This document shows, piece after piece, positions 8,343 through 60,923 of a stretch of DNA of 64,000 bases. Below the pieces are notes generated by a model. It worked only from the letters and a program-made list of their open reading frames with translations. It was not told where the DNA came from and did not search any database. Numbering within the stretch: the stretch's first letter is position 1; every line of letters begins with the position of its first letter. Both the position numbers and the translations under genes were made by a program. This stretch comes from Elusimicrobiaceae bacterium (GTDB taxonomy: Bacteria; Elusimicrobiota; Elusimicrobia; Elusimicrobiales; Elusimicrobiaceae): contig JAZUSQ010000021.1 in assembly GCA_045606825.1 (NCBI GenBank), positions 86,706 to 150,705 on the forward strand, given 5' to 3'.

Positions 8343-8612
8343 ACGTTTTCCTCACTCTCTTAAATTCAATTTGTCCGTTTGGAAAACGCACCCATAAAAC
8401 AACGGCTGCATAGCCCCATGAATTATCACACCCATGAAACACAAACAGCCGCAGCTCTCCGCAAAACGGAAAACATTTGGCGCAAGATAAACGGGTAATT
8501 AGTCCGTTTCCCTTGCACCCGATTGGGTTGTTTCTGGAGTGATAATTGTTGCCCTTGGCAACGGTGCCTTTCGGCTTCCAAAAACAGATTAAATTGTATC
8601 TATAGTATAATA
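8343..8612 (-). ncRNA. Conserved structured pilin 5' leader, copy L1
   Basis: TTATTATACTATAGATACAATTTAATCTGTTTTTGGAAGCC...CGGCTGTT...CAGCCGTT...AAATTG...GAGG..ACGTATG blocks shared with eight other copies. Confidence 0.7.
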
Positions 8613-8742
8613 AAAAAATCCGTTTGCGACAAGAAGAAACACAGCAAACCCTGGCCTTTTAAACTGAATTGGTAAAATTTTATAGAATTAAGGTTGTTAG
8701 ATAACATTGCAATATATTTATGGGATATGGGGTTATATACGT

Positions 8743-9588
8743 ATGAAAAAACTAATGCTAGCCGTTTGTTTGTTGGCCCCTATGGGGGCCTATGCCGCCC
8801 AGCCGGCCGCTACTGTGGCTGTGCTGGCTTACTCGGCAGATGAACTGGCCGCCAAATTTGCAGGCAAGAACCGCAAAGAGATAGTGGCCGCCATTACCAC
8901 CATCCCCGTGTATGAACAAACTTTTACCGCCGCGGACGGCACCGAATACGAGGCCGTGCGTTACGGCAAAACCAACCAGGACTACCGCTTATTTTTGTAT
9001 AAGTTTGCCTGGCCGCAACCGCTGGTAGGGGTGGTTGAGAATGCCAAAGGGATTTTGGCTCTCAATGCACGTTATCAGATTGACATCCCGCTGACCGAGC
9101 AAGACATTGCCAAAAACACATCCGCCGCCACGCTAAGCACCGTTACCGACGTAGGCAACAACCGTACCTATAACGTTTATCAAAATGGTAGTGAGTTCTT
9201 GCTCTTTCATAACGGTGTGTTGGTGCAACAGTTTGACAACGCGCAAGATTATGCCGCTTTTATGGCTACGCTAACCGCCTCTAATTCCGCCTATACGGCC
9301 GAGCAAGCCCAAGAGCAAACCGCGCTGGAAAATGCCCGGCTCAACCAACAAAAAAACTATTATACGCGCCCGCGCTCTTATTGGGCCCCGGTGGTAGGCA
9401 CGGCTTTATTGGGTGGACTGGTATGGGGGAGCGTGTATCATCATAATCACCACCGCCACCGCCATCATGCGGCCCCGCCCCCGGCACCGCACCACCGCCC
9501 CGGGCATTTAAAACCGTTGCGGCCCGGCGGACCGCCGCCCGGTACCCCTCTCATACGTGACGTAAACGGCAGATTTATGCACCGCTAA
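8743..9588 (+). CDS. Hypothetical exported protein with His/Pro-rich C-terminal tail
   Basis: Signal peptide MKKLMLAVCLLAPMGAYA (ATG 8743 preferred over the track start 8707); tail HHNHHRHRHHAAPPPAPHHRPG. Confidence 0.7.
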   Translation: MKKLMLAVCLLAPMGAYAAQPAATVAVLAYSADELAAKFAGKNRKEIVAAITTIPVYEQTFTAADGTEYEAVRYGKTNQDYRLFLYKFAWPQPLVGVVENAKGILALNARYQIDIPLTEQDIAKNTSAATLSTVTDVGNNRTYNVYQNGSEFLLFHNGVLVQQFDNAQDYAAFMATLTASNSAYTAEQAQEQTALENARLNQQKNYYTRPRSYWAPVVGTALLGGLVWGSVYHHNHHRHRHHAAPPPAPHHRPGHLKPLRPGGPPPGTPLIRDVNGRFMHR

Positions 9589-9689
9589 AACTTAATGAAC
9601 TTCCCCCGGCTTACGCCGGGGAAATTGTGCACAACAAGATTAAAAAGCCCCAACAAATTGTTAGGGCTTTTTAATTTTTAAAACTACAT

Positions 9690-11150
9690 TTATTTGTTTT
9701 TATTTTCGTCCAACGCGCATTTCACTTTGGGGCTGTTGGCCACCAGGTCCTTAATAGGCTTAATCACTTGCGCTTGGGGTTTTAATGTGCATGGGCCGCC
9801 AATGCAACCGCCTTTGCAATTCATCACTTCCAACAGTTGAAAATCCCCCGCACCTTTGGCAAATGCCGTAAGCAAGGCCATGGCTTTTTTATCCAAGCCG
9901 TTAATGGCCATTTTCTTGAACGGCTTTTTGCCGGCAATGGCATTTTCTACCGCTTGGGCTACGCCACCGGTTACGCCGTAGTAGCGGGCCTCGCCTGAGA
10001 TGGCAGGGTCCAAAGGCATTTCTTCACATTCGGCCGGGTTAATGTGTTTGGCATCAAACAAGGCTCCCAATTCTTCGTAAGTCATCACATAATCAATGTT
10101 GGGGTCTTCCATCCCTTCCGCCCGTTTGGATACACACGGCCCTACAAACACGGTTACATGGCCTTTTTGTTTTTCCAGTTCGGCGGTATAAGCGGCCGGG
10201 GTTTTGGTGTGCGAAACAAATTCTTTCAGCGCGGGCAAGTGTTTGCGTACGGCACGCACCCAGGCCGAACAACAAGAAGTGGTCATAAACCGCGCACCGT
10301 TTTCCAACCGTTCCACCAGTTCGCGCGCTTCGTTAGCGGTGGTAATATCGGCCCCCAGGGCAACCTCCGTTACCAGCGGGAAACCGGCTTTTTTGATAGC
10401 CGTCATTAACTGGGGCAAGGTACAATCAAACTGCCCCACAATAGACGGCGCAATCATAGCCACCACTGGGGCCCCTTTTTTGATTTGGCCCAAAATGTCA
10501 ATTAACTGGCTACGTTCCATAATGGCCCCAAACGGACAGGCTTCCATGCAATGCCCGCAGGAAATACACTTGTCAAAATCAATTTCCGCTACACCGTTTT
10601 CCCCTTTGTGGATAGCATCTACCGGGCAAGCCTGTTCACACGGAACCGGGATAAAAGTAATAGCATTGTACGGACAAGCCATTTTGCACGCACCGCAATT
10701 TTTGCATTTATCTGCATCAATAAACGAACGTCCGTCAATAAAACTGATGGCCCCAAATTTACACGCCTGTTGGCAAGGGCGTGCTAAACAACCCTGGCAA
10801 GCCTCGGTTACCATGTGGCGGGCCTTGCGGCAACCATGGCAGGCAATATCCATAACCGTCAGCGGCAGTTGCGGAATTTGTGTACGGGTAAGGGCCTTTT
10901 TGGCGTAATCATTTAGCGAAGTTGCCTCGTCATCTTCTTCCACACTGCACCCCAAAGCGGCCAATGTGCGGGCACGAAATACGGCGCGCTCTTTGTAAAT
11001 ACAACAACGCACGGAGGATTTGGAATCTTGCGGGATAACATCATAAGGAATGCGGTAGGCTTCCGTTTCTAGGGAGTTTTTATCAAAGGCTTCAATAATT
11101 TTGCGAAGCGCGGTACGTCTGAAATAAATGGCTTTATTGTCTGAGTTCAT
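9690..11150 (-). CDS. Monomeric [FeFe]-hydrogenase-family protein with N-terminal 4Fe-4S domains
   Basis: H-cluster motifs TSCCSAW (L1), GPCVSKRAE (L2) and EVMNCKGGCIGG (L3); several CxxCxxCxxxCP ferredoxin motifs. Confidence 0.88.
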   Translation of the reverse strand: MNSDNKAIYFRRTALRKIIEAFDKNSLETEAYRIPYDVIPQDSKSSVRCCIYKERAVFRARTLAALGCSVEEDDEATSLNDYAKKALTRTQIPQLPLTVMDIACHGCRKARHMVTEACQGCLARPCQQACKFGAISFIDGRSFIDADKCKNCGACKMACPYNAITFIPVPCEQACPVDAIHKGENGVAEIDFDKCISCGHCMEACPFGAIMERSQLIDILGQIKKGAPVVAMIAPSIVGQFDCTLPQLMTAIKKAGFPLVTEVALGADITTANEARELVERLENGARFMTTSCCSAWVRAVRKHLPALKEFVSHTKTPAAYTAELEKQKGHVTVFVGPCVSKRAEGMEDPNIDYVMTYEELGALFDAKHINPAECEEMPLDPAISGEARYYGVTGGVAQAVENAIAGKKPFKKMAINGLDKKAMALLTAFAKGAGDFQLLEVMNCKGGCIGGPCTLKPQAQVIKPIKDLVANSPKVKCALDENKNK

Positions 11151-11212
11151 ATGGCTTATATTTTAGCATATTTGATGTAACTCCACCCGGTGCAAATTTG
11201 AAAGAAATTATG

Positions 11213-11495
11213 TAGAATGAAAGAGAAGTAAAAACACAATTTTATCCTGTTTTTGGAAGCGTTTAAGAAACGCGAACCCGAAAGGGGGCTAGTTACTCCA
11301 AAAACAACGGCCGATCAGGCATAAGAGCACGGACCTTCGAAACCCGTATTCTTATGCCGAATGTTTATCGTTTTGACGGTAGGCTACGGTTGTTGTATTT
11401 ATGTTCTGTAACTAGCCCATAAGTACAAGCAGCCGTTTCTTTTATATGCGTTTCCTGGGACGGATAAGTTGGAAATTAAAACAAGAGGTGAACGT
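11213..11495 (+). ncRNA. Conserved structured pilin 5' leader, copy L2 (most divergent 5' end)
   Basis: ACAATTTTATCCTGTTTTTGGAAGC...TCCAAAAACAAC...GCCGAATGTTT...CTACGGTTGTT...CAGCCGTTT...GGATAAGTTG...AAGAGGTGAACGTATG. Confidence 0.7.
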
Positions 11496-12014
11496 ATGAA
11501 CCAAAACAATACCCGGCGGGGTTTTACGCTTATTGAGTTGTTAGTAGTGGTGCTCATCATTGGCATTTTAGCAGCCGTGGCCCTGCCGCAATACCAAAAA
11601 GCAGTTGTTAAATCCCGCGTTGCGAGTATTTTACCCATTGTTAACACCTTAAGGAATGCAGAGGACGTTTATTATTTGACAAATGGAAATTACACACATG
11701 CTATTCAGGATTTAGACGTGGCTATCCCTTGTATTGAAACCTTTGAGGATGATACATATCATCCATATTGGCAATGTGGAGATGTTTTTTTAGTACAAGT
11801 TAGTGATACTGGTTCTTATGCAAGCTACTGTCCAGGACATAATGATACGGTTGCAACATGCAAGCAACACAGAGATTTTCAAATAGCTTATAACTATTCA
11901 CGTATAGGTGGAAGACGATACTGCATAATTAAAAATGATAGTTCATTGGGAGAGTCTATTTGTAAAACAATAGGGCAAGCTACAAAGATACTAGGTGAGT
12001 ATCTCATCAGGTAG
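11496..12014 (+). CDS. Type IV pilin (PilE-like) #2
   Basis: [37 protein letters not shown]; ATG 11496 follows an AAGAGG RBS. Confidence 0.93.
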   Translation: MNQNNTRRGFTLIELLVVVLIIGILAAVALPQYQKAVVKSRVASILPIVNTLRNAEDVYYLTNGNYTHAIQDLDVAIPCIETFEDDTYHPYWQCGDVFLVQVSDTGSYASYCPGHNDTVATCKQHRDFQIAYNYSRIGGRRYCIIKNDSSLGESICKTIGQATKILGEYLIR

Positions 12015-12079
12015 AGAGTACAAAAGATTATGCTGATACATGCCCCCAAATTTTCCAGGGGGCATTTTCTACTAAAACC

Positions 12080-13459
12080 TTATTTCTTCCCTTCCCGTCG
12101 GGCTTTGCGCTTGGCTAACCGTTCGGCCTTTGTTTCGCGGCGTTTGTAGCCGGCGTGCTGGGGGGCTTGCGGGGCTTCTTGGTCAAAGTCGCCGTTCCAT
12201 TCAAATTCTTTGCCGCCCACTACCAGCAAATCGCCGTCTTGCACGCCTTGTTTTAACAAGGCTTTTTCCAGGCCGATTTTTTTGAAAATCCCTTTTAACC
12301 GCGTGACGGCCTCGGGCTGGGTAAAATTGGTCATGGCAATAAATTCTTCCACCTTTTTACCCGTGATGTGGATGACGTCGTTTTCGTCGCGCGTAATAGT
12401 AAAAATAGGCTCTACTTTATGCACCACGGGTTTTTCTTCTTCCGCCGCCATTTGTTCCACCGGGGTGGCAGAAAGAATTCTTACCACTTCATTTAATACT
12501 TCTTTCACACCCTCTCCTGTGGCGGCGGAAATCAAAAATACTTTTTGTTTCTTGCGCTTTTTACATAGAGCCTTATACACTTTTTCAGCGGACGGTAAAT
12601 CCGCCTTATTTACAGCTAAAATGCGCGGTTTATCAAACAGTTTTTTGTTAAATGTTTTTAACTCTTTTTCAATGACCTTTACACTTTCTTCAGCAGATAG
12701 TCCGTCAAATCCTTCCGGGTCCACCAGGTGCAAAAGTACACGGGTGCGCTCAATATGTTTTAAAAATTGCAGGCCAAGGCCCTTGCCCTCGCTGGCGCCT
12801 TCAATAATACCGGGAATATCGGCCGTAGCAAAACTGACCCCTTGATGCAGGGTAATGCCCAGGTTAGGGTTCAACGTCGTAAAGGCATAGTCGGCAATGC
12901 GCGGGCGCGCCGCGGAAATGCGGCTTAAAAAGGTACTTTTGCCCGCATTGGGGAACCCTACAAGCCCCAAATCAGCCAAAATTTTAAGTTCCAAAATCAA
13001 AGTTACTTCCTCGCCGGGAAGGCCGTTTTCGGCAATGTGCGGGGCGGTGTTTTGTTGAGTTTTAAAAGATTGGTTACCGCGTCCGCCCGCACCGCCTTTG
13101 GCCACGGTAAATTCCTGGCCGGGCTTGGTCATATCCACTAAAAATTCGCCTTCCAGCGTGCGTACAATGGTGCCGCAGGGTACATAGACGTAGCGGTTTT
13201 CGCCCGCGCGGCCGGTTTTGTTGTACGAGCCACCTTTCTCGCCATTTTGGGCCTCAATATGCGGGTGATAGGCCAGTTCTAAGAGCGTAGTTAAATTGGG
13301 CTCGGCCTTTAAAATAACGTCCCCACCACGGCCGCCGCATCCGCCGTTGGGGCCGCCAAATTCAATAAATTTTTCGCGCCGAAACGACAAACACCCGTCC
13401 CCGCCTTTCCCGGCGGTTACATAAATTTTAACACGGTCTAAAAAACTGCCTGATTGCAT
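12080..13459 (-). CDS. obgE: GTPase ObgE/CgtA
   Basis: Gly-rich Obg fold (GGKGGDG), GFPNAGKST, DIPG, NKAD; C-terminal extension. Confidence 0.97.
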   Translation of the reverse strand: MQSGSFLDRVKIYVTAGKGGDGCLSFRREKFIEFGGPNGGCGGRGGDVILKAEPNLTTLLELAYHPHIEAQNGEKGGSYNKTGRAGENRYVYVPCGTIVRTLEGEFLVDMTKPGQEFTVAKGGAGGRGNQSFKTQQNTAPHIAENGLPGEEVTLILELKILADLGLVGFPNAGKSTFLSRISAARPRIADYAFTTLNPNLGITLHQGVSFATADIPGIIEGASEGKGLGLQFLKHIERTRVLLHLVDPEGFDGLSAEESVKVIEKELKTFNKKLFDKPRILAVNKADLPSAEKVYKALCKKRKKQKVFLISAATGEGVKEVLNEVVRILSATPVEQMAAEEEKPVVHKVEPIFTITRDENDVIHITGKKVEEFIAMTNFTQPEAVTRLKGIFKKIGLEKALLKQGVQDGDLLVVGGKEFEWNGDFDQEAPQAPQHAGYKRRETKAERLAKRKARREGKK

Positions 13460-13523
13460 AACAAATCCTTACGTAACAAAAAAAGCGGCAGGATAATTCC
13501 CGCCGCTTTTACTGGCCAAAAGT

Positions 13524-13898: not shown

Positions 13899-13914
13899 GG
13901 TTTATTCTCCCAAT

Positions 13915-14353: not shown

Positions 14354-14845
14354 TCAAGGGCGTGAAGCCCGATCACAATCGCCTAATTGTTTGGTAAAGC
14401 CCAATTTGGAAACCTCGAAATTAAACAAACTATTTGTAGAGGCATATAATTCTCCCAGAACAGGATGGTATCTACCACACAAAATTCGATCCCTCAGATA
14501 AATCTGGAATAACTGCGAGGTCCCACAACACTTGGTGGGAACCGCGTAAGAAACATACCCGTAATTAGAAACATAATATTCGCAAGATGAAATTCCTGGT
14601 AGAGCAATACATTCGGGAATTTCAATATCCAGTTGGGATATGTCCGTAGCGTATTCATCATGCTCTAAATAATATCTTGCTTGCGCTTGCGCGATTGCGT
14701 GCAAGTTGGTTTCAATTTCCGCAAAGCGCGCTTTTTGTACTGCCTTGTTATACTGTGGCAGGGCCACCGCCGCCAATATCCCAATAATTAACACCACTAC
14801 TAACAACTCAATGAGGGTAAACCCTCTTTTTCTTTTGTACTGCAT
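14354..14845 (-). CDS. Type IV pilin (PilE-like) #3
   Basis: [31 protein letters not shown]. Confidence 0.93.
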   Translation of the reverse strand: MQYKRKRGFTLIELLVVVLIIGILAAVALPQYNKAVQKARFAEIETNLHAIAQAQARYYLEHDEYATDISQLDIEIPECIALPGISSCEYYVSNYGYVSYAVPTKCCGTSQLFQIYLRDRILCGRYHPVLGELYASTNSLFNFEVSKLGFTKQLGDCDRASRP

Positions 14846-15113
14846 AACATCCTCCTAAGTTTAATTTCCAATTTACCTGCCCTCGGAGTTGCACGCAAAA
14901 ACGGCTATCCGCCTTGCAAATCATTACCCTTGCAAAACAAACAGCCGCAGTTTCCTTATTTTGTATTACAAAACGGAAACATTGGGCACACAGGGATGGC
15001 CGTCCCTATGTGCCTTTCAGTCGGCTATTTTTGGAGTAATGATTGTTGCTTGGCAACAGGACCTATAAGTATAGGCTTCCAAAAACAGATCAAATTGTAC
15101 TGATAGTATAATA
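14846..15113 (-). ncRNA. Conserved structured pilin 5' leader, copy L3
   Basis: TTATTATACTATCAGTACAATTTGATCTGTTTTTGGAAGCC...CCAAAAATAGCCGA...GCGGCTGTT...TAGCCGTTTTTG...CAGGTAAATTG...AGGAGG. Confidence 0.72.
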
Positions 15114-22944: not shown

Positions 22945-23229
22945 TTATTATACTATGGGTACAATTTGTTATCTGTTTTTGAGCCGTATGTAGAATACGG
23001 GATTGCTTAATCAGCACTCGTCGAAGTCAAAAACAACCACAATGAGGTGCAATGGGACCGTACATCCTGTTGCGCCGAATGTTTGCCGTCATAAGATGGC
23101 AGGCTACGGTTGTTATATAAGGTATCTTCGACGAGGCCCCAAATAGCAGCCGTTTTTGCATGCGTTCTTCAGAAGCGGAACAAATTGAAATTATAGGTTG
23201 GGTGCAACCCAACGTTAAAAAGGAGACGT
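22945..23229 (+). ncRNA. Conserved structured pilin 5' leader, copy L4
   Basis: TTATTATACTATGGGTACAATTTGTTATCTGTTTTTGAGCCG...GGTGCAATGGGACCGTACATCCTGTTGCGCCGAATGTTT...CTACGGTTGTT...CAGCCGTTTTTGCATGCG...AACAAATTG. Confidence 0.72.
23193..23213 (+). repeat. GTAG-family REP-like palindrome inserted between the leader and the RBS
   Basis: ATAGGTTGGGTGCAACCCAAC; near-identical to GTAGGTTGGGTGTAAACCCA at 61063-61082. Confidence 0.6.
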
Positions 23230-24102
23230 ATGATGCAAAACAAAAATCAACCCGTCATTGCGAGGAGCACCGCGACGAAGCAATCTAATCAAAACAAAAA
23301 AGCCCGTCATTCCCGAGTGTTTTTATCGGAAATCTACAACGCATGCCGTTGTAAAATTAAGGGAAATTCCTTATTAAATAGGTACGTGGAAGATCCCCGA
23401 CAGAAACCCTCGGGGATGACATCTTGTGTTACAACAGCCCACGGCTTTACCGCCCGCGCCGTCACCCCGCAGGGTCGGTATGCGGGGTATAGCGGGCATC
23501 CCGGCTTTACCCTTATTGAGCTATTAGTAGTTGTCTTAATTATCGGTATTTTGGCGGCGGTAGCGTTGCCACAATACCAACAAGCCGTTATAAAAGCGCG
23601 TATAGCGGAGAAATTGACTGTTTCTAATACTTATCGTAAGGCTATTGAGTTATGGCTTCTGCAGAATGACTGGCCTGAAGAACGTATCATCTTGACGGGA
23701 TTTGGAAACCCTAACCAGGGCAGTTTAGACTTAGATCTCCCTGGGAGAACAACAAGCTCCAAGAGCTCGGTGGATAGTTATGGAGAAAGTTTATGGGTCG
23801 CGGCGTCGATAAGTAATACCGCGGCAACCGTATACGTTTTCTCGCCGTGTGATTACGAAACATGTGGTGAGAAATCTTGTGGTTTTAAGCTTGCTCGTTC
23901 CTTAGACAGTACATGGATGCTTGCTCCAATATTCACATTTTCCCGCGCCAGTGGCGGCGGCTTTAGCACGCCAACCGCTACGGAAGATCAATGTCCCAAA
24001 ACTAAAAAAATAATATGCCAGTATTGGGCTACACAGGGCAATGGGTTAAGTACTGCTAGCGCCAAAACACAATGTGCCCAGGTTGGCGTTACATTAAATT
24101 AG
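23230..24102 (+). CDS. Type IV pilin (PilE-like) #4, with ~95-aa leader peptide
   Basis: [29 protein letters not shown] preceded by in-frame palindrome-derived sequence. Confidence 0.9.
   Translation: MMQNKNQPVIARSTATKQSNQNKKARHSRVFLSEIYNACRCKIKGNSLLNRYVEDPRQKPSGMTSCVTTAHGFTARAVTPQGRYAGYSGHPGFTLIELLVVVLIIGILAAVALPQYQQAVIKARIAEKLTVSNTYRKAIELWLLQNDWPEERIILTGFGNPNQGSLDLDLPGRTTSSKSSVDSYGESLWVAASISNTAATVYVFSPCDYETCGEKSCGFKLARSLDSTWMLAPIFTFSRASGGGFSTPTATEDQCPKTKKIICQYWATQGNGLSTASAKTQCAQVGVTLN
23253..23511 (+). repeat. Cluster of in-frame REP/RPE-like palindromes in the pilin #4 leader peptide
   Basis: GTCATTGCGAGGAGCACCGCGACGAAGCAATCT; GTCATTCCCGAG...; AGATCCCCGACAGAAACCCTCGGGGATGAC; GTCACCCCGCAGGGTCGGTATGCGGGG flanked by a duplicated GGCTTTACC. 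Confidence 0.75.
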
Positions 24103-28526: not shown

Positions 28527-29036
28527 CTACCACGCCCGGCTGTCTACTTTGTCCCAATTTGCAGGAAGAAGGTTACAAATTTCCATCCCTTTATCCGTAC
28601 CTCCCAAACAATAATGAACTCCCCACCCCGTGTGTGGCCTACTCCCTTCAACGAATAGAACGCAATCACTCCCATACGACACCCCAATTTGAGGGCCTAT
28701 ACTCTCATTAAACACGCTATATGTCCAATCTTTGGTTTTGCAATATCCCCCTTCGCAAGAAACAAAGGGAATATCTATATCTAATACACCTTCCTGTAAA
28801 TAATCCCAAGAGACTTCCTTTCCCTCCAATTCTGCCAGATCAACGGCTTTTTTTAATGTGTCAATATTTGTGAGTGCTTCTGAGAGGCGCGCTTTCATAA
28901 CGGCTTTCTGATACTGCGGCAAGGCTACGGCCGCCAAAATACCGATAATTAGCACCACTACTAATAGTTCAATGAGCGTAAAACCTTTAGGTAAACCTCT
29001 TTGCGTTTCTCCCCGCTGGGAAATTTTCAACTTCAT
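28527..29036 (-). CDS. Type IV pilin (PilE-like) #5
   Basis: [25 protein letters not shown]...; ATG 29036 follows GGAGG. Confidence 0.92.
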
Positions 29037-29310
29037 TTTTACATCCTCCAGTTTTGTTAATTTCAATTTCCTCTGTCTGAAAAACGCATGTAAAAACGGC
29101 GGTTGTACCGGGCCTCATTCACAAAACCCCATACAACAGCCGTAGTCTCCCTTCTTGCCAGGCAAAAAGGGAAACATTAACACACAAGAGGAGCGCTCCC
29201 CCTTGTGTGCCTACTACCGACTGTCTTTTGGCGTGAATGAGCACCTTGCGGTGTTCCGTATTCCACATACGGTTCCAAAAACAGATAAAATTGTACCTAT
29301 AGTATAATAA
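29037..29310 (-). ncRNA. Conserved structured pilin 5' leader, copy L5
   Basis: TTATTATACTATAGGTACAATTTTATCTGTTTTTGGAACCGTATG...CCAAAAGACAGTCG...CTACGGCTGTT...CGCCGTTTTTACATGCG...CAGAGGAAATTG. Confidence 0.72.
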
Positions 29311-35868: not shown

Positions 35869-36354
35869 TCATTGTTTTAAATAGTCACAAGCGACGGCAC
35901 CTTCTTCATTGCCTAAACAATCCAGGTACCAACCATTTGAATTTGGGGTTTTTTCTATCATTAAGTCCATTTTATCACCAGCAAAATTGAGAACGCAACC
36001 CACATAGTCATTGCTATTCTCACACATCCAGCCCGTGAAGTAAGGACTGTCTCCTTTATAATAGTTTATAAGTTCTTGTGTTTTTATTTCATCAAACCCA
36101 ATCGTTAATTCCTTCTTCGGGAAAGTTTCATCTCCTTCTCCCAAAAAAGTAACATTTTCATACCCATGTTCCAGCACGTATAAATCAATGGCTTTTTTAT
36201 AGGCATCCACCATGGATACAAGCTTAACGGCTCGCGCTTTATACACCGCTTTTTGATACTGTGGCACGGCTACCGCCGCTAAAATACCGATAATCAGTAC
36301 AACTACTAACAACTCTATAAGCGTGAAACCCCGCCGGGTGTTTCTTGTTGTCAT
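35869..36354 (-). CDS. Type IV pilin (PilE-like) #6
   Basis: [37 protein letters not shown]. Confidence 0.93.
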   Translation of the reverse strand: MTTRNTRRGFTLIELLVVVLIIGILAAVAVPQYQKAVYKARAVKLVSMVDAYKKAIDLYVLEHGYENVTFLGEGDETFPKKELTIGFDEIKTQELINYYKGDSPYFTGWMCENSNDYVGCVLNFAGDKMDLMIEKTPNSNGWYLDCLGNEEGAVACDYLKQ

Positions 36355-36629
36355 ACGTTTTCCTCTTTGTGTTTAATATGCACAATTCTTCTCCATCACT
36401 GAAAACGCATGCAAAAACGGCTACCACCGTTGTGTCTGTCTGAAGTCACAACAATAACAGCCGTAGTTTCCCGTCATAGACGGGAAACACTCGGCGCAAC
36501 AAGATGTACGGTCCTGTTGCACCTAATTTCGGCTATTCTTGGACTCAGACAGAACTTGGTTTTTCCAAATACTCCGTATTCCGCATACGGTTCCAAAAAC
36601 AGAATCAAATTGTATCTATAGTATAATAA
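36355..36629 (-). ncRNA. Conserved structured pilin 5' leader, copy L6
   Basis: TTATTATACTATAGATACAATTTGATTCTGTTTTTGGAACCG...CCAAGAATAGCCGA...GGTGCAACAGGACCGTACATCTTGTTGCGCC...CTACGGCTGTT...TAGCCGTTTTTGCATGCG. Confidence 0.72.
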
Positions 36630-36680
36630 AAAAGACTGGTAAAAACCAGCCCTTTTTATTGTACACTTTTGAAAATTTTT

Positions 36681-39364: not shown

Positions 39365-40024
39365 CTACGGGTAAATATACCAGGTTCCGTAGGCATTTGA
39401 AAAATCGGCCTGCGTTTTGAGGGTTTCACGTTGGCAGAACTTTACTGCTGCATTTGTCTTTGCCCCACAAACTTGTTTACCTGCAAATGAACGGAATTGA
39501 GAATACGTATTATCTTGTAAAAGCCAACTTTGAAGTGATGCAGATAGGTCAGAAATAAAAAGAATAATACGCGGAGCTGCATCAAATTGCCGGTCAATAA
39601 GAGAAATTTCTCCCCAATCAAACTGATATGTTCGGTGGCCGTTGCCTAAACTTGTTACTTGAATGGGTGTTTCTGAGAAATCAACATTTAAGTTGTTAAT
39701 ATCGGGAGTATATTCTCCATTCTCTAAGTAATAGAGTTCTTCGGCTCTTGCTAACGCTACTGCTAACATTTTATAACGGCTGTATTTGCTTTTTTCTACG
39801 GCTCGTTGGTACTGCGGTACGGCTACGGCGGCTAATATGCCAATAATGAGTACCACTACTAAGAGTTCAATGAGCGTAAAACCCATTAAATTAGGTGTCA
39901 TCCCGTACTTGATACGGGATCTTCCACGCACGTTGTTAACAAACAGCAACGACAAGCGTTGAAGATTCCAAATCAAGTTTGGAATGACTTTATTATTTTT
40001 CACATGTTTTTTTCCTTTCTTCAT
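39365..40024 (-). CDS. Type IV pilin (PilE-like) #7, with extended leader peptide
   Basis: MKKGKKHV...VIPNLIWNL...[19 protein letters not shown]; ATG 40024 follows AGGAG. Confidence 0.92.
   Translation of the reverse strand: MKKGKKHVKNNKVIPNLIWNLQRLSLLFVNNVRGRSRIKYGMTPNLMGFTLIELLVVVLIIGILAAVAVPQYQRAVEKSKYSRYKMLAVALARAEELYYLENGEYTPDINNLNVDFSETPIQVTSLGNGHRTYQFDWGEISLIDRQFDAAPRIILFISDLSASLQSWLLQDNTYSQFRSFAGKQVCGAKTNAAVKFCQRETLKTQADFSNAYGTWYIYP
39897..39988. repeat. Inverted REP doublet (REPIN-like), in frame in the pilin #7 leader peptide
   Basis: GTCATCCCGTACTTGATACGGGATCT (39897-39922) and AGATTCCAAATCAAGTTTGGAATGAC (39963-39988). Confidence 0.8.
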
Positions 40025-40055: not shown

Positions 40056-40218
40056 AAAAAAGCGGCAATCTTATTCTAAGAGCTGTTAGAGATGACCCTT
40101 AAAATAACCGCCGCTGACCTACCTCTTACGAGGCAGGCAAAGCAAGACAATTATTTGATGATCTCTAACATGCGCACCAGGTTTCCCCGGTTTTGCTCGG
40201 CGCGGGCTTCCCCCGCAC
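40056..40218 (-). ncRNA. Candidate GEMM-I-like (cyclic dinucleotide) riboswitch with intrinsic terminator, upstream of pilin #7
   Basis: GAGCAAAACC-GGG-GAAA-CCT-GGTGCGCA resembles the GEMM-I P1 arm. The long stem TGTTAGAGAT/ATCTCTAACA competes with the terminator AGCGGCGGTTATTTTAAG...CTTAGAATAAGATTGCCGCT-TTTTT. Confidence 0.4.
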
Positions 40219-45767: not shown

Positions 45768-45814
45768 CTTTTTGCATATACTCCTTGTTCCCCGGTTGCT
45801 AATACCGGGGTTTT

Positions 45815-46100
45815 TTATTATACTATAGGTACAATTTGATCTGTTTTTGGAACCGTACGAAGAATACGGATGGCTTTGGATAAAAGCGATGAGGTACTCC
45901 AAAAATAGCCGATAAAAGCACGATACTAATGAGTTGATCCCTCGGCAGTATTGTGCTGAATGTTTGTCGTTTTATTAAAATGGCAAATTACGGCTGTTTT
46001 TGTGGAGCATGTGCCTCATCCTCTATCAAACCAGCCGTTTTTGCATACGTTTTCAGGGATGGAGAAGAATTGTGCATATTAAACACAAAGAGGTAAACAT
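45815..46100 (+). ncRNA. Conserved structured pilin 5' leader, copy L7
   Basis: TTATTATACTATAGGTACAATTTGATCTGTTTTTGGAACCG...CCAAAAATAGCCGA...TACGGCTGTTTT...CAGCCGTTTTTGCATACG...GAATTGTGC. Confidence 0.72.
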
Positions 46101-46664
46101 ATGACAACAAGAAATACCCGGCGGGGTTTCACGCTTATAGAGTTGTTGGTAGTTGTACTGATTATCGGTATTTTAGCGGCCGTAGCACTGCCGCAATACC
46201 AAAAAGCGGTGGATAAGGCACGGGCAAGTGAGTTGTTTGCTATCGTGAAAAATATAAAAGTACAACAGGAAGTCTTTTATTTAGCCAATGGGCACTATGC
46301 CGCCGATTGTGAAGAACTGGAGGCCGATTTGCCCAGCGGGTTTGAAAAGAGGGAAAATAGTACCATTTATGATTTAGTAAAAGGAAATTATAAAATTAGT
46401 TTACGCTGTAAAAACGGAAATAATCCGCGGATTATGGGTCAATTGAATGCGGAGTCGTTACATGTAGCTATAGAAGCTTTTTTTGATCATTATGCGGATG
46501 AAGATGTAGCCGATAATATAGACACAGGACAGCAAGGCAGAGCGTTTTGTTATTTTCAATACTATGATTCTGCTACTGGTTCTTATCCCATTAATGAGCG
46601 AGGCGGTGCGGTGTGTAAGTCTTTGGGGAAAGAAAAAAGGGACAAGGGTAGTTACTGGCTATAA
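46101..46664 (+). CDS. Type IV pilin (PilE-like) #8
   Basis: [37 protein letters not shown]. Confidence 0.93.
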
Positions 46665-54513: not shown

Positions 54514-54791
54514 TTATTATACTATAGGTACAATTTTATCTGTTTTTGGAACCGTATGTAGAATGCGGCAGAATTTTGGGAAATCCAAAATTGTGTGCGA
54601 CGCCAAAAATAGCCGAACTAGGTGCAATGGGACCGTACATCCTATTGCGCCGAGTGTTTTCCGTTTTCAAACGGAAGGCCCGGTTATTGTAAATGGGGGT
54701 GGTCGCACAGTCCCAAATATGATAGCCGTTTTTGCATGCATTTTCTGGGATGGAGAAAAATTGTGCATATTAAACACAAAGAGGGGAACGT
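54514..54791 (+). ncRNA. Conserved structured pilin 5' leader, copy L8
   Basis: TTATTATACTATAGGTACAATTTTATCTGTTTTTGGAACCG...CCAAAAATAGCCGA...GGTGCAATGGGACCGTACATCCTATTGCGCC...CGGTTATT...TAGCCGTTTTTGCATGC...AAAAATTGTGC. Confidence 0.72.
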
Positions 54792-55532
54792 ATGAACAAA
54801 AGAAATACCCGGCGGGGGAGTACGCAAACAGAAAATGTAGTTCAAAAAAATAAAGTCATCCTGAATTTAATTCTTCCACGCACATTGTTACACCGGTATC
54901 AAAGAAACGACAAGCGTGGAAGATGCCGTATCAAGTACGCCGTGACGGCTCTATGTAACAACAACCGGGAGACGGGAGATCCCCGATTACGACTTTCGGG
55001 GATGACACCCAATTGGATAGCGGCGCGCGGGTTTACCCTTATTGAACTGTTGGTAGTGGTGCTGATTATTGGCATATTAGCGGCGGTGGCCCTGCCGCAG
55101 TATAACAAGGCCGTGTGGAAAGCCCGCGTAACACAGGCCCTGGTGTTTATCTCCGCCATAGAAAAAGCCGGGCAAGCCTATGTACTGGAAAACGGATATC
55201 CGGCTCTAGGGAAAGAAGCCATTTCTCTACTAGGGGCCAACTCCCCACTTGCCTTGGATTTATTTCCTGCCAGCGCATGTGATGATGATATCTGCACTGA
55301 TAACTATTTTGCCTATGTTGCGGAAGTGTATACTCCTATTGGAAAACGTTCACATCTAGAATGGACTGTACGCCTGCAAGAGGATCCTATAGATTCTTTC
55401 TTCTCTTGCGTCATTTATGCTGACGGAACGTCTGATTGTGCGTGCTGGTATAGAACGCCTCGTGCTCAAACAGTATGTGAATTACTGGATGCAAGGGAGC
55501 CCAATAAATATACCTTGCACAACGCAATGTAG
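54792..55532 (+). CDS. Type IV pilin (PilE-like) #9, with ~80-aa leader peptide
   Basis: MNKRNTRRG + palindrome-derived insert + [10 protein letters not shown]. Confidence 0.92.
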   Translation: MNKRNTRRGSTQTENVVQKNKVILNLILPRTLLHRYQRNDKRGRCRIKYAVTALCNNNRETGDPRLRLSGMTPNWIAARGFTLIELLVVVLIIGILAAVALPQYNKAVWKARVTQALVFISAIEKAGQAYVLENGYPALGKEAISLLGANSPLALDLFPASACDDDICTDNYFAYVAEVYTPIGKRSHLEWTVRLQEDPIDSFFSCVIYADGTSDCACWYRTPRAQTVCELLDAREPNKYTLHNAM

Positions 55533-56543: not shown

Positions 56544-56544
56544 A

Positions 56545-57378
56545 TTATTCTCCAAAATCATAGGTTAAGGGATTATCCCCCACCAATTTAAAGTCTTCAT
56601 AATCTTTTACGTTTGCCCCGCGACGGGTTAGAAATTCTACCGCTAATTTAATATATGCCTCTGCCCCGCGGCAGGCAGGTTCATAATCAAAAATGGCTTG
56701 CCCAAAACTGGGAGCCTCGGCCAAACGGATGTTACGCGGAATAGGGGTTTTATAGATTTTATCCCCAAAATAGTTACTGACTTCCTCACGCACTTGTTTG
56801 GCTAAATTCAAGTGGCTATCATACATGGTTAGCACACCGCCATCCATTTTCAATTGCGGATGCAGAAATTGTTTAATTTTATTGACTGTACCCATAAAAT
56901 GGGCCAATCCTTCCATAGCGTAATACTCACATTGTACCGGGGTAATAACACTGTCCGCGGCCATCATAGCGTTCAACGTAAGCAACCCCAAGGAAGGCGG
57001 ACAATCTATAATGATAAAACGATACATATCCCGAATAGGGGCTAATGCTTCTTTAAGCATATTTTCGCGCCCGCGCACATTTACCAATTCCACCTCTGCT
57101 CCTGCCAAATCTTTGCAAGCAGGTAATACATCCAAAAATTCGTTTGCGGTTTGGCGTACCACCTGGTCAAACGGGGCTACTTTCGTAAGCAAATGGTAAA
57201 CAGATTTTTGTCCGTCCTCCACGCTTACCCCTAAACCCGATCCGGCATTGCCTTGTGGGTCAAAATCTACTAAAAGCACTTCCTGGTTTAGACAGGCCAG
57301 TGCGTAGGCTAAATTGATAGACGTGGTAGTTTTGCCCACGCCGCCTTTTTGGTTTGCTACTACTACAATTTCTGCCAT
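56545..57378 (-). CDS. parA: Chromosome partitioning ATPase ParA/Soj
   Basis: NQKGGVGKTTT, DFDPQGN, DCPPSLG, IRLAEAPSFG. Confidence 0.97.
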   Translation of the reverse strand: MAEIVVVANQKGGVGKTTTSINLAYALACLNQEVLLVDFDPQGNAGSGLGVSVEDGQKSVYHLLTKVAPFDQVVRQTANEFLDVLPACKDLAGAEVELVNVRGRENMLKEALAPIRDMYRFIIIDCPPSLGLLTLNAMMAADSVITPVQCEYYAMEGLAHFMGTVNKIKQFLHPQLKMDGGVLTMYDSHLNLAKQVREEVSNYFGDKIYKTPIPRNIRLAEAPSFGQAIFDYEPACRGAEAYIKLAVEFLTRRGANVKDYEDFKLVGDNPLTYDFGE

Positions 57379-57483
57379 AATTCCTCCTGCCTATATTTAA
57401 CCATATCTACCCTAAAAACGCAAGAGATTTCTGTTGAAATACCCTTGCGTTTGAAAGATGGATGTTGCGTAAGTAGATTAAAA

Positions 57484-57499
57484 GTTTTCACGTGAAAAC
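57484..57499. promoter_or_regulatory. parS-like site 1
   Basis: Perfect palindrome GTTTTCACGTGAAAAC upstream of parA. Confidence 0.85.
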
Positions 57500-57505
57500 T
57501 TTTGC

Positions 57506-58477
57506 CTATTTAATTCGCCCTATTTTTTTAGGTGGCCAATGGATAAACCAGGCTTTCCCTTTGATGTTTTCCCGCGGCACAGGACCCCAAAAACGGGAAT
57601 CACAGGAATTATCGCGGTTATCCCCCATGACAAAGTAACTGTTCGCAGGCACTTTGACAGGGCCAAAACTATCACGTAGTTCCTCCCCTACGTAGTTGTC
57701 TAATTTATGGTTTTGCCAAATACGCTGGTACAATTTTGGGTCATCAATAATAGGTCCTTCCTGGCGGGTAACATCTTCATACATTTCATAAGGTTGTTGC
57801 GGCATTTCTTTTTCATTAACCCACAATTTCCCCTCTTTTACCTCCACAGTATCACCCGGCATGGCTACCACCCGTTTTACAAAGTCGCGTCCATATTGGG
57901 TTTCTAACCCGCAGTTGACTTGCTGGCGATTTTTAGCCGGGAACTTAAATACAATAATATCCCCCGGAGTAATATCCTCTATTTGCCCAAAACGCCAATT
58001 CGTAAAAGGGATACGAAATCCATACACCGCCTTATTTACAAATAAATGGTCCCCTTCCACCAACGTATTACGCATAGAAGCGGAAGGAATTTTAAAGGCC
58101 TGGATAAAAAAGAACATGATAATAGAAGCCACAAATCCGGCAAAATAAACCGTATTGCACCAATCTAAATCTGCTTTTAAAATATGATTCCGTTTTTCCT
58201 CATCTATGTTAGACATCTTAGCCAAACGATAGAGCGAAAATACTACTACCCCTATTTCCAAAATAAAAAATTTATCGGTAGGGAAAGGGGCCCCCGGACC
58301 GCCATTCATCACAAATACTAAGATATATGCGGCACACGTTAAAATAAACAACAAAAATATACCATGCCAACGGGCAAACGCAATAGGCTCTTTTAAAAAT
58401 TCCCTTCGTTCCAACCATTTCGTGAGCCTGGCAAAACCATACATAATACAAGCCACTATAAATAGACGTTCTTCCAT
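57506..58477 (-). CDS. lepB: Signal peptidase I
   Basis: IPSASM (catalytic Ser), DFVKRVV (catalytic Lys), GDNRDNSCDSRFWG. Confidence 0.95.
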   Translation of the reverse strand: MEERLFIVACIMYGFARLTKWLERREFLKEPIAFARWHGIFLLFILTCAAYILVFVMNGGPGAPFPTDKFFILEIGVVVFSLYRLAKMSNIDEEKRNHILKADLDWCNTVYFAGFVASIIMFFFIQAFKIPSASMRNTLVEGDHLFVNKAVYGFRIPFTNWRFGQIEDITPGDIIVFKFPAKNRQQVNCGLETQYGRDFVKRVVAMPGDTVEVKEGKLWVNEKEMPQQPYEMYEDVTRQEGPIIDDPKLYQRIWQNHKLDNYVGEELRDSFGPVKVPANSYFVMGDNRDNSCDSRFWGPVPRENIKGKAWFIHWPPKKIGRIK

Positions 58478-58492
58478 ATTCTCTCCTAATCA

Positions 58493-58508
58493 GTTTTCAC
58501 GTGAAAAC
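58493..58508. promoter_or_regulatory. parS-like site 2
   Basis: GTTTTCACGTGAAAAC. Confidence 0.85.
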
Positions 58509-58509
58509 T

Positions 58510-59637
58510 TTATTTAATTTGACACGCCATGTTTTCACGTGAAAACTTTTGCGTGTTTACTACATGTTGATAAAGTTGTTGATACTGTTGGGAACTATTC
58601 GCTGAATGGGAAGATATAGAAAGATTTTTCTCCCCCATTTGTTGCCGTAAAGGCGCATTTTCATATAATTCCGTTAACAAACAACTTAGTAGTGTCTCGT
58701 CTTTTGCACTGCATACAAATCCATTTTGCCCGTGTTTTATAATAGAAGGCATATCCCCTACGGCACTTACCACACAAGGCAATCCCACTTGTTGGGCTTC
58801 CAGCAAGGCTAGCGGCAGGGATTCTTCCCGTGAAACGAGCACAAACACATCTGCCATATTTAGCCACGCATTGATATCGGTTTGATATCCGGCCAAAAGT
58901 ACTTTCTCTGTTAAGTTATGGGCTATGACTAATTTTTCTAAATTTTGCTTTTCTTCCCCATCCCCCACTAAAACCAATTTGGCATGCGGACAATGGGATT
59001 CCATACGCGCAAAAGCACGTAAAAGGGCGGCCTGGTTCTTGATTTTGGCAAACCGCGCTACGCAAATATAGACTACATCTGTATCGGAAAAGTTTTTTTC
59101 GTGGCGTAGGCGCGATTTTAGAAAATTATCCTTAAAAAATAAAGATTTTTTTATACTATTGGGCACCAACACCGTTTTTTCTTTTGCGTAACCCTGTTTT
59201 TCCAACAAAAACTGATAAGTACTAACCGATTCCGCACACGAAACCGTATCCATATTTTTTAAAGCCTTATCCAAGGCACGCATCCAAAACGGTTTTTTGG
59301 ATAAATCAAAATGCGGGGTTGTAATCAATTTGATATTACGGCCGGCACAGGCCAGGCGCGTAAATTCTATGGCACGGAAAAGTAGGGCGTGAACGATATC
59401 CGGACGGAAGGTTTCCAGTTCGCGTACGATCTTAGAAACAATTCCTAGCCCTGCGCCTTTCATCTGTAGTGAAACTACTTCTGCACCCGCCGCGCGCAAC
59501 GCCTGCGCCACCGGCCCAAGCGGTTTTAAACAGACTACGCGCACGCTATGACGGGGGCAAACCTCTTGCACAAGGGACAGCAAGGCGTTTTCCGCCCCGC
59601 CTACGTCGGTAGTAGTGATTACATACATCAGTTTCAT
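58510..59637 (-). CDS. GT4-family glycosyltransferase
   Basis: GGAE, VARFAKIKNQ, SREESLPLALLEA (E-X7-E). Confidence 0.9.
   Translation of the reverse strand: MKLMYVITTTDVGGAENALLSLVQEVCPRHSVRVVCLKPLGPVAQALRAAGAEVVSLQMKGAGLGIVSKIVRELETFRPDIVHALLFRAIEFTRLACAGRNIKLITTPHFDLSKKPFWMRALDKALKNMDTVSCAESVSTYQFLLEKQGYAKEKTVLVPNSIKKSLFFKDNFLKSRLRHEKNFSDTDVVYICVARFAKIKNQAALLRAFARMESHCPHAKLVLVGDGEEKQNLEKLVIAHNLTEKVLLAGYQTDINAWLNMADVFVLVSREESLPLALLEAQQVGLPCVVSAVGDMPSIIKHGQNGFVCSAKDETLLSCLLTELYENAPLRQQMGEKNLSISSHSANSSQQYQQLYQHVVNTQKFSRENMACQIK
58531..58546. promoter_or_regulatory. parS-like site 3 (inside the glycosyltransferase 3' end)
   Basis: GTTTTCACGTGAAAAC. Confidence 0.82.
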
Positions 59638-59700
59638 TGCTATTATTATAGCAAGTTTTTCTCATTGACGGCGTACATACAATTTTGTACCGTAAATTGT

Positions 59701-60015
59701 ATGCGAAAAATACTTCTTTTAACAGTAATTTGTACGTATATAGCCGGATGCGGCCTATACGGAACTACAAAATATAATGTGGATCTCAACGCACAACAGG
59801 TAGATTTATCCCACACAGAAGACATCAAAAAAGCCTCTTCGTGCTCGTTTTTACTGCTGGGGTTTATCCCATGGCCGTGGCATAAACACAAAACGCCCGG
59901 CACGTTATTTGAAGCCATGCAACAGGCTGAAATTAACCACATTGTATGGATAGACAGCACGTATGACTACAAATTTACCTACGCCAATAAATGCCAAAAC
60001 GCGTATGGGTATTAA
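59701..60015 (+). CDS. Small lipoprotein (TRL-like)
   Basis: MRKILLLTVICTYIAGC lipobox; ends CQNAYGY. Confidence 0.65.
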   Translation: MRKILLLTVICTYIAGCGLYGTTKYNVDLNAQQVDLSHTEDIKKASSCSFLLLGFIPWPWHKHKTPGTLFEAMQQAEINHIVWIDSTYDYKFTYANKCQNAYGY

Positions 60016-60168
60016 AAAGTATTAAAAAAATCCCCAGTTTTTGGCTAGGGATTTTTTAGTTATGAGTTTATTTATAATAGTTCTACCCGCATATGAGAAC
60101 TCCTAAGTATCTACTCGACAGGTCTTATTTTGCAGCGCATTTTTACTACGTGTCAAGACAATACAAGT

Positions 60169-60660
60169 TTATTTTATTTCACAATGATTACTGCCACATA
60201 GTGTAGTACATGTGGTATCGGAAAAGTTGGTACAGGTTATATTTCCTGTATCTACATTTTGAGCCAAGTAATAGGGCATATCACCATCTGCCATGACCCG
60301 GTTTGCAATCATAACTCTTACTCCATTGAAACCGAAACTCCAATCTTTTGTGTTTAGACACAAATCATCGTCTAGACAATCATTACTCCAAGTTCCAGGG
60401 ATACTAATATCGGATGATACAAATAAATTAGAAGTAGCATCTGTATCAAGACATTGGCTGGCCTGCTTTCCATATTGCAATTCACATAATTGAAAAGATT
60501 TTGTCATGGCATTGAGTATTGTTTTTGCCTCCGTTAATCTACTTTTTTCCACGGCTTTTTGATATTGTGGCAATGCTACCGCAGCCAAAATACCGATAAT
60601 CAGCACGACAACTAATAATTCTATAAGCGTGAAACCCCGCCGGGTATTTCTTTTTTGCAT
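60169..60660 (-). CDS. Type IV pilin (PilE-like) #10
   Basis: [37 protein letters not shown]. Confidence 0.93.
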   Translation of the reverse strand: MQKRNTRRGFTLIELLVVVLIIGILAAVALPQYQKAVEKSRLTEAKTILNAMTKSFQLCELQYGKQASQCLDTDATSNLFVSSDISIPGTWSNDCLDDDLCLNTKDWSFGFNGVRVMIANRVMADGDMPYYLAQNVDTGNITCTNFSDTTCTTLCGSNHCEIK

Positions 60661-60923
60661 AAGGCACATCCTCCTAATTTTGATTTTCACAATTCATCTG
60701 GTTCGGATTTGCACGTAAAAACGGCTCCTTGCTTCGTAAATCATCAAACCCACGAAACAAACAGCCGTAGTCATTCATTTTTTCAAATGAAAAACATTCA
60801 GCATACAAAGATGGCCGTCCTTGTATGCTTTTAATCGGCTGCTTTTGGTTTGATGATTGCTGTATTGACAGCGGTGCCTTTCGGCTTCCAAAAACAGATT
60901 CAAATTGTACTGATAGTATAATA
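60661..60923 (-). ncRNA. Conserved structured pilin 5' leader, copy L9
   Basis: TTATTATACTATCAGTACAATTTGAATCTGTTTTTGGAAGCCGAAAGGC...CCAAAAGCAGCCGA...CTACGGCTGTT...GAGCCGTTTTT...CAGATGAATTGT. Confidence 0.72.

Follow-up and report, generated by a model that had tools for sequence, protein, structure and literature searches.

The window analysed here is a 64,000-nt stretch of DNA from an Elusimicrobiaceae bacterium (GenBank assembly GCA_045606825.1, contig JAZUSQ010000021.1, positions 86,706 to 150,705 of the forward strand). It carries nine dispersed copies of a leader of about 270 bases, each of which stops at the ribosome-binding site (RBS) of an open reading frame (ORF) for an N-methyl pilin-like protein. 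A preliminary description had grouped these nine leaders as one structured element found before pilin genes only, and had offered two readings, a structured 5' untranslated region (UTR) or the end of a pilin cassette. We followed the element through the window, the rest of the genome and related species, and propose that it is most likely a transcription attenuator.

Leader copies in the window and beyond

Aligned in the gene-sense direction, the nine leaders, named L1 to L9, indeed form one alignable family. The covariance model used for scoring was trimmed to 225 positions (the leader alignment has 269), weak antisense matches were kept out, and the window copies scored 153-206 bits. All nine ORFs downstream contain the Pfam domain N_methyl (PF07963, N-terminal methylation motif), confirming that every copy precedes a pilin-like gene. 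The element stands before no other gene of the window, as had been claimed: an nhmmer profile and the covariance model each returned exactly nine copies. They are listed here with the core matched by the covariance model and, where noted, with the palindrome, loop or apex of the hairpin H3, which is treated below.

L1, 8343..8612, minus strand: core 8366-8598, 153 bits; H3 palindrome UAAUUA; followed by the pilin-like ORF 7698-8342
L2, 11213..11495, plus strand: core 11235-11472, 163.9 bits; H3 palindrome UUCGAA; -10 element TAGAAT; followed by a pilin-like ORF ending at 12014
L3, 14846..15113, minus strand: core 14868-15099, 179.4 bits; H3 loop GGCC; followed by the pilin-like ORF 14354-14845
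L4, 22945..23229, plus strand: core 22960-23188, 173.6 bits; H3 loop GUAC; followed by ORF 23230-24102, with the pilin motif at residue ~92 behind repeat-derived sequence
L5, 29037..29310, minus strand: core 29063-29295, 181.2 bits; H3 apex AGCGCU; followed by the pilin-like ORF 28527-29036
L6, 36355..36629, minus strand: core 36382-36614, 206.2 bits; H3 loop GUAC; followed by the pilin-like ORF 35869-36354
L7, 45815..46100, plus strand: core 45830-46073, 184.6 bits; followed by the pilin-like ORF 46101-46664
L8, 54514..54791, plus strand: core 54529-54764, 184.1 bits; H3 loop GUAC; followed by ORF 54792-55532, with the pilin motif at residue ~78 behind repeat-derived sequence
L9, 60661..60923, minus strand: core 60689-60909, 183.5 bits; H3 loop GGCC; followed by the pilin-like ORF 60169-60660

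Nine is the number of copies in the window but not the size of the family. With a profile built from the nine copies, we found 141 copies in the 1.56-Mb, 43-contig genome, which together occupy 34.6 kb, or 2.2% of the DNA. A pilin motif of the G|FTLIE type follows on the same strand within 420 nt in 129 of the 141; most of the 12 others stand before pilins that are broken or carry repeats, or are found at the ends of contigs. Every copy has the same orientation as the gene downstream. With scores of 153-206 bits in the window, 141 copies in the genome and a pilin motif behind 129 of these, the leader family lies far outside what chance would give.

The spacing between leader and pilin motif is bimodal, either about 25-50 nt or 100-420 nt. 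Genes of the long-distance class carry repeat-derived sequence between the start codon or RBS and G|FTLIE, often with an open frame (e.g. PVIARSTATKQSNQ, IKYGMTP, LQPCGVTKRV); examples in the window are the genes of L4 (23230-23500), L8 (54792-55030) and L1 (7698-8342).

The covariance model also matched 127 of 145 Elusimicrobiaceae genomes (copy counts in these relatives are lower bounds, i.e. at least the number found), distributed over the genera as follows.

Genus g1: match in 89 of 95 genomes
Genus g19: match in 34 of 34 genomes
Genus g14: match in 3 of 5 genomes
Seven other genera of the family: match in 0 of 10 genomes

The element was found in none of 16 genomes from other families of the order. 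The named matches are gut and rumen metagenome-assembled genomes (MAGs) labelled Elusimicrobiaceae, Elusimicrobium or Avelusimicrobium, from human, ruminant, reindeer and other gut samples. Exclusive association with pilins, which holds in the window, fails in other species, where a pilin lies downstream in 29 of 41 copies and where the leader also precedes genes for a polysaccharide pyruvyl transferase, an RgpF homolog, a GT8 glycosyltransferase, an HSDR_N-domain protein and a lipoprotein-like product. In related species, the leader thus also stands before some surface-polysaccharide genes. The HSDR_N protein (type I restriction enzyme R, N-terminal domain), a conserved protein of ~267 aa in the Elusimicrobiales MAGs L062, L084, L106 and L072, is an odd target beside pilins and glycosyltransferases.

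Anatomy and conserved pairing of the leader

The window copies share the ordered blocks listed in the preliminary description: TATACT, ACAATTTnATCTGTTTTTGG, CCAAAAAYAGCCG, the hairpin GGYRCAA..TTGYRCC, GAATGTTT with its hairpin, CTACGGCTGTT, AGCCGTTTTTGCATGCG, AAATTG and the RBS. The hexamer TATACT is -10-like and is, as reported, replaced by TAGAAT in L2. All its variants (TATAAT, TGCTATAAT, TAGAAT) remain -10-like, and a promoter scan called TATACT in L7; the transcription start site (TSS) probably lies ~6-8 nt past the hexamer. The stem closing the 5' and 3' ends holds as well, including the three examples that had been quoted from L4, L2 and L9.

From 5' to 3', the leader consists of a T-rich tract with TATACT; a strand S1 (UACAAUUUnAUCUGUUUUUGGAAC), at whose start the TSS would fall; two hairpins, H1 and H2; a strand S2 (CCAAAAAYAGCCG); the hairpin H3; the block GAAUGUUU followed by the hairpin H4; a strand S3 (CUACGGCURUU); an inner hairpin; a strand S4 (AGCCG) and then UUUUU; a purine-rich strand S5, which ends in AAAUUG; an A-rich spacer, the RBS and AUG. 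The upstream gene's intrinsic terminator often lies directly against the leader, and its T tail runs into the T-rich tract before the -10 element (45790-45810, 36636-36649). The parts are exemplified by L7, on the plus strand throughout.

45819..45824: -10-like hexamer TATACT
45830..45853: S1 (UACAAUUUGAUCUGUUUUUGGAAC), can pair with S2 (helix P1) or, at full length, with S5 (helix P0)
45854..45892: H1 and H2, two hairpins of variable sequence inside P1
45899..45911: S2 (CCAAAAAUAGCCG), can pair with S1 (putative anti-antiterminator P1) or with S3 (putative antiterminator AT)
45917..45957: H3, long hairpin with many compensatory changes; loop 45934-45940, palindrome GAUC at 45936-45939
45964..45986: H4, covarying hairpin behind the conserved GAAUGUUU
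45987..46002: S3 (AUUACGGCUGUUUUUG), 5' arm of the putative terminator, or partner of S2 in the antiterminator
46030..46042: S4 (ACCAGCCG) and UUUUU (46038-46042), 3' arm of the terminator-like stem and U tract
46050..46074: S5 (UUUUCAGGGAUGGAGAAGAAUUGUG), can pair with S1 through many G.U pairs and close the full-length leader (P0)
46087..46103: A-rich spacer, RBS AAAGAGG and the ATG at 46101

Conservation is strongest in the strands that can pair with two partners, and loops and junctions are variable, which explains why conserved blocks alternate with variable hairpins.

To quantify pairing, we used 74 copies from the window, 20 other loci of the same genome and 11 other species, and a second, independent set made up of 43 copies of other species. 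Standard pairs occupied 93.2% of the paired cells in the 74-copy set, compared with 79.5% after column shuffling (a control that is the more meaningful because the copies are old and roughly equidistant, see below) and 43-50% with slid partners; changes on both sides were seen in 39 of 55 pairs (542 cells). In the independent set, 94.0% of cells were paired and 38 of 55 pairs had changed on both sides. In paired columns, G.U outnumbered A.C by 509:51 and 252:28 (~10:1), which implies selection on one strand only, at the RNA level. Furthermore, the sense strand folds better than the antisense strand in 85 of 86 copies (-94 versus -73 kcal/mol), and the variable segments keep their hairpins whatever their sequence (mean z -2.05 for H1+H2 in 86 copies, -5.2 for H3+H4). 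The pairing and strand data indicate that the leader is an RNA, transcribed in the same direction as the gene. The 10:1 asymmetry of G.U over A.C rules out a DNA-level palindrome or transcription-factor site, and a sigma-54 promoter inside H3 (GGCAC..TTGC) was dropped since that stem covaries freely.

Several of the helices exclude each other. P1 (S1:S2) is paired in 98-100% of cells in both copy sets, and the core of S2:S3 in ~95%, where C.G changes to U.A in 11-15 copies and A.C never occurs. The terminator-like stem S3:S4 is paired in 91-95% of cells (74- and 43-copy sets), and the U-run behind it is conserved in 92-99%, with 5 nt in this genome and 6-7 nt in other species, whose 43 terminator hairpins have a mean energy of -24 kcal/mol. 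One base of S3, S3[9], pairs with S2[9] in 86 of 86 copies (C.G in 49, U.A in 15, U.G in 22, A.C in none; Fisher test, 4e-7), and the same base also pairs with S4[2] (Fisher test, 5e-5). Similarity among the 15 U.A copies does not exceed that of random pairs, and these copies do not form a clade, so the exchange does not go back to one single event. Since S3[9] covaries with both S2 and S4, selection acts on two mutually exclusive helices, and such covariation is the signature of a switch.

S5 alternates between A and G opposite the U residues of S1 and between C and U opposite its G residues, and the S1:S5 duplex has a mean energy of -14.6 kcal/mol, compared with -7.4 kcal/mol for shuffled S5. 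We followed the expected order of events by minimum free energy (MFE) prediction at successive lengths. Leaders ending after S3 formed AT in 83 of 86 copies of this genome and in 42 of 43 copies of other species. Extended through the U-run, 62 of 86 (mean margin 5.4 kcal/mol) and 37 of 43, respectively, adopted P1 together with the terminator. Extended through S5, 68 of 86 copies adopted P0 together with AT; among the 43 copies of other species, AT formed in 35 and P0 in 31. At full length, the extreme 5' end lay inside a helix of ~20 bp in 77 of 86 copies. The staged folding is thereby predicted to be conserved across species.

Three variants have S1-S4 and the U-run but lack S5 (C36:4519-4950, C3:14495-14914 and C18:11741-12110, contig handles of this genome), showing that the four-strand module can stand alone. 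Each runs directly into a fast-evolving ORF of 68-93 aa without a Pfam domain; in the C36 copy, rpsF and ssb follow. The divergent copy at C18:11741 keeps P1 through changes on both strands. We rejected the 68-93-aa ORF as a partner protein, since it is present in only 7 of the 145 genomes of the family and matches no Pfam domain.

The loop of H3 has a property of its own. It contains a palindrome of at least 4 nt in 89% and of at least 6 nt in 59% of the copies in this genome (shuffled loops, 34% and 4.6%), and in 95% and 77% of the copies in other species (shuffled, 33% and 4%). In the loops of H1, H2, H4 and the inner terminator hairpin, the corresponding frequencies are 0-13% and 0-2%. The words vary from copy to copy (UUAUAA, UUGCAA, GAUC, UUCGAA, UCAUGA, UAAUUA, GUAC, GGCC), and self-complementarity is the sole property common to H3 loops across copies, which points to loop-loop pairing between like RNAs. 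Unpaired nucleotides flank the palindromes (2-3 nt at their 5' end, 1 nt at their 3' end), which are therefore not extensions of the stem. The computed gain of an extended-duplex dimer was -9.0 kcal/mol, compared with -5.3 kcal/mol for shuffled loops, which likewise suggests that like leaders may form RNA-RNA dimers.

No Rfam family matched the leader, either at the gathering score or at E<10, in keeping with the preliminary description, which had recognized none. In an Rfam 15 covariance scan of the window, six tRNAs alone passed the gathering threshold; for L7 at E<10, the best scores were 12-25 bits against thresholds of 41-298. Full-text literature searches yielded no description of the element. 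The leader is a candidate cis-regulatory RNA family, absent from Rfam and undescribed.

Probable attenuation and the alternative explanations

We consider the element a promoter-proximal 5' leader RNA of stand-alone pilin-like genes that most likely acts as a transcription attenuator, with a probability of roughly 60%. This is one of the options of the preliminary description, a structured 5' UTR attenuator, and it gains from the strong covariation, the strand-specific G.U bias and the selection on both terminator and antiterminator helices. In its logic the proposed switch would resemble the trp attenuator (1:2, 2:3 and 3:4 pairing) without a leader peptide.

The course outlined next is inferred, which applies to the TSS, to actual termination at the U-run, to locking by S5, to dimerisation and to a trigger of whatever kind. 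Transcription would begin right after the -10-like TATACT, and S1 would pair with S2 to form P1, enclosing H1 and H2. When S3 emerges, S2 would swap to S3, and AT would zip up from the base of the central H3/H4 hairpins. Once S4 is made, P1 plus the S3:S4 terminator would become the stabler state, a stem followed by UUUUU; whether polymerase stops there, ~215 nt into the leader, would be set by how fast, or whether, S1 recaptures S2. In read-through transcripts, S5 would pair with all of S1 (P0), lock the antiterminator fold and bury the 5' end, leaving the A-rich RBS open. The copy-specific palindrome of 4-6 nt exposed in the H3 loop probably allows leaders of the same kind to dock on each other through a kissing loop, and docking may couple the decision to how much leader RNA has been produced before.

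A more specific form of this last step, in which a finished leader docks through its copy-specific H3 palindrome on nascent transcripts of the same gene or class and flips the attenuator, is speculative, and we regard it as rather unlikely. If true, each of more than 100 pilin genes would have an RNA-only feedback loop, bistable (ON/OFF) or dosage-limiting, and the pilin on display could be chosen without DNA rearrangement or a dedicated protein regulator.

Several points weigh against attenuation. A simple terminator scan did not call the terminator-like stem, which is unusually long (~19 bp) and contains an internal hairpin, and its U-run is short in this genome, at 5 nt. Because S1 hardly varies between copies, P1 and P0 rest mainly on one-sided (G.U) variation; the low-complexity A-run and U-run strands make alternative pairings easier to find; covariance-model alignments lean toward the model's own structure; and MFE predictions leave out folding kinetics. 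The searches for a sensor were negative too. No conserved short ORF lies over S1: the sole recurrent start is a TTG within S1 that has no RBS, and the ORFs from it span 4-74 codons with stops scattered along the leader, which rules out a trp-type leader peptide. We found no NusG paralog in this genome (93% complete), the one PF02357 match being the housekeeping nusG, neither CsrA nor Hfq in the genome, and neither conserved loop or junction nucleotides nor a known aptamer, GEMM included, in the leaders.

The alternative that survives best, although we judge it unlikely, is a constitutive structured 5' UTR for mRNA stability, processing or insulation, whose terminator-like stem regulates nothing and whose buried 5' end, in the S1:S5 helix, could be a determinant for RNase III or RNase J/E. 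Pilins tend to be made in very large amounts and to require stable mRNAs, and the burial of the 5' end in a ~20-bp helix (77 of 86 copies), the A-rich, unstructured RBS region and the lack of a sensor among the NusG paralog, CsrA, Hfq and leader-peptide searches would all fit such a role. It does not account for one S3 base covarying with both S2 and S4, so that two exclusive helices are maintained, nor for a U-run that is 92-99% conserved directly behind S4; moreover, the three functional-looking variants that have lost S5 retain S1-S4 and the U-run, and the staged energy design is kept across species.

It is less probable still that the main product is a trans-acting small RNA of ~215 nt ending at the U-run, with pilin expression as mere read-through and with action through the palindromic H3 loop or the U-rich strands. 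The leader does have what such an RNA would need, i.e. its own -10 box, a stable terminator-like 3' hairpin, a U tail and a kissing-type loop, and a truncated leader (S1-H1 only, 57.5 bits) at C7:27280-27353, on the minus strand, is followed by a GC-rich hairpin upstream of a gene for a 358-aa protein; this fragment could be a decayed copy or a small RNA. However, 129 of the 141 copies lie immediately upstream of, and co-oriented with, a gene without another recognizable promoter, and the pairing of S5 with S1 is conserved past the U-run, where it makes sense only in read-through transcripts.

A small-molecule riboswitch with a terminator expression platform (e.g. a second-messenger sensor), the other variety of regulatory leader proposed in the preliminary description, seems very improbable. 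A P1-closed three-way junction before an antiterminator/terminator pair is the usual layout of an OFF riboswitch, and pilA1 of Clostridioides difficile is controlled by a c-di-GMP-II riboswitch. Here, no Rfam aptamer was found, the loops of H1 and H2 and the junctions vary freely, only the dual-partner strands are conserved, and 141 copies per genome are, to our knowledge, far above any known riboswitch class.

Finally, that the leader is a mobile element or recombination end (a miniature inverted-repeat transposable element (MITE), a mobile promoter, or the 5' end of a spreading or recombining pilin cassette, as had been suggested) is hardly credible despite the high copy number (141, 2.2% of the genome), S1/S5 termini that resemble inverted repeats and the presence before non-pilin genes in other species, which itself speaks against a pilin cassette: the median pairwise identity of 82 leaders is 63% (5-95% range, 57-68%) and the maximum 74%, with star-like distances and no young copies; leader and pilin similarity are uncorrelated (Spearman 0.005) and their nearest neighbours agree in 1 of 82; and all copies are co-oriented with their gene and under the one-strand, RNA-level selection seen in the 10:1 excess of G.U over A.C. 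Since identity does not exceed 74% and does not track the pilins, the copies are old, roughly equidistant and individually maintained; together with their strict co-orientation, this speaks against a burst of MITEs and against the recent spread of a cassette.

The genome also has pilins outside the leader family. Among 193 pilin-like ORFs, 64 are without the leader: 48 stand alone behind upstream regions of other kinds, 9 are close to a contig end, 6 come after another pilin-like ORF and 1 is preceded by a leader at a distance of 600-1500 nt. The upstream regions of leaderless pilins cluster, with groups of 24 and 9. A tenth pilin gene of the window (~39365-39883, minus strand), which the preliminary description had not listed, belongs here. 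A second, unrelated structured leader, which precedes some of the pilins that have no main leader, lies at 40056-40218 of the window (minus strand) before the pilin-like ORF ending near 39365, and also at C13:~3000-3364 and C21:~76028-76400. This GC-rich leader includes GCCUGCCC-GUAA-GGGCAGG and has a terminator-like stem with a U-run at its end; it matched neither the c-di-GMP (GEMM) riboswitch nor another Rfam family, the best score being 21.6 bits for Acido-Lenti-1 against a threshold of 37. Other leaderless pilins (C18:4848-5200, C18:27497-27850, C1:68000-68375, C13:9747-10100) have a plain promoter, GCTTGACGCG-T12-GGTAAATTTGAGG, and a short UTR. Sigma-70-type promoters with -35 and -10 elements thus exist in this organism, whereas the main leader conserves the -10 element alone.

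Comparison with known systems

If the proposed attenuation is correct, the leader would be a new and very large cis-regulatory RNA family, with more than 100 copies per genome and thousands across gut and rumen Elusimicrobiaceae; it takes up ~2% of a 1.5-Mb genome and would control a paralog family of ~1/8 of the genes. Its hundreds of diverged, functional variants would amount to a natural library of one RNA switch, suited to the study of co-transcriptional folding, and would give a handle on the regulation of the surface repertoire in poorly known gut bacteria.

The leader shares features with several systems. Like the Correia elements (CREE) of Neisseria, it occurs in more than 100 intergenic copies, would be able to supply a promoter and has co-transcribed terminal complementarity. 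Correia copies are young, lie in both orientations and have DNA-level inverted repeats, whereas the copies described here are old, strictly co-oriented and paired through G.U. The RfaH/ops, UpxY and LoaP leaders of surface-structure operons act on transcription elongation. They resemble the Elusimicrobiaceae leader in being long 5' leaders before pilus or surface-polysaccharide genes; the differences are that we found the housekeeping NusG alone, single-gene targets and no ops-like element. The anti-antiterminator/antiterminator/terminator architecture in a 5' UTR is shared with PyrR-controlled pyr leaders, T-box leaders and riboswitch platforms, but the leader has no recognizable binding site, specifier or aptamer and no Rfam match.

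In the trp and his attenuators of Enterobacteria, segments pair as 1:2, 2:3 and 3:4, and the availability of strand 1 picks terminator or antiterminator. The four strands and the mutually exclusive pairing logic are the same here; unlike these attenuators, the leader has no leader peptide, its S1 is placed at the extreme 5' end of the transcript, its strands are set apart by long hairpins and S5 comes in addition. Like known kissing-loop sites such as HIV-1 DIS/SL1, H3 has a loop of ~9-11 nt that consists of 2-3 nt, a 6-nt palindrome and 1 nt. In pT181, pIP501 and pCF10, loop-loop RNA contacts on the nascent leader decide termination (countertranscript-driven attenuation). The partner there is an antisense RNA, whereas here it would be another sense copy, contacted through the self-complementary loop. 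Countertranscript attenuation in pCF10 is also cited in the pLS20 study discussed next (PMC13401043).

The closest topology is that of cATTpLS20, a zipper-type attenuator that has been studied by experiment and comes from pLS20, a plasmid of Bacillus subtilis (Gonzalez-Alvarez et al., Nucleic Acids Research 2026; PMC13401043). It has a weak upstream stem, a long central hairpin and a downstream intrinsic terminator, and its two states are similar in energy; the 3' strand of the upstream stem is complementary to the 5' arm of the terminator, the antiterminator extends the base of the central hairpin, and the weak upstream stem decides the outcome, by a trigger that is unknown there (PMC13401043). 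P1 would correspond to the weak upstream stem and H3/H4 to the central hairpin. The two elements have no sequence relationship and come from different phyla; each pLS20 plasmid carries a single copy, in front of a conjugation operon, whereas the leader has 141 copies per genome before single genes. In addition, the pLS20 element has neither a palindromic loop nor a fifth strand that pairs with the 5' end. The leader has both, and as an attenuator it would be unusual in two respects: S5 would hold the read-through fold in place and hide the 5' end, and the self-complementarity of the H3 loop hints at dimers between sense RNAs.

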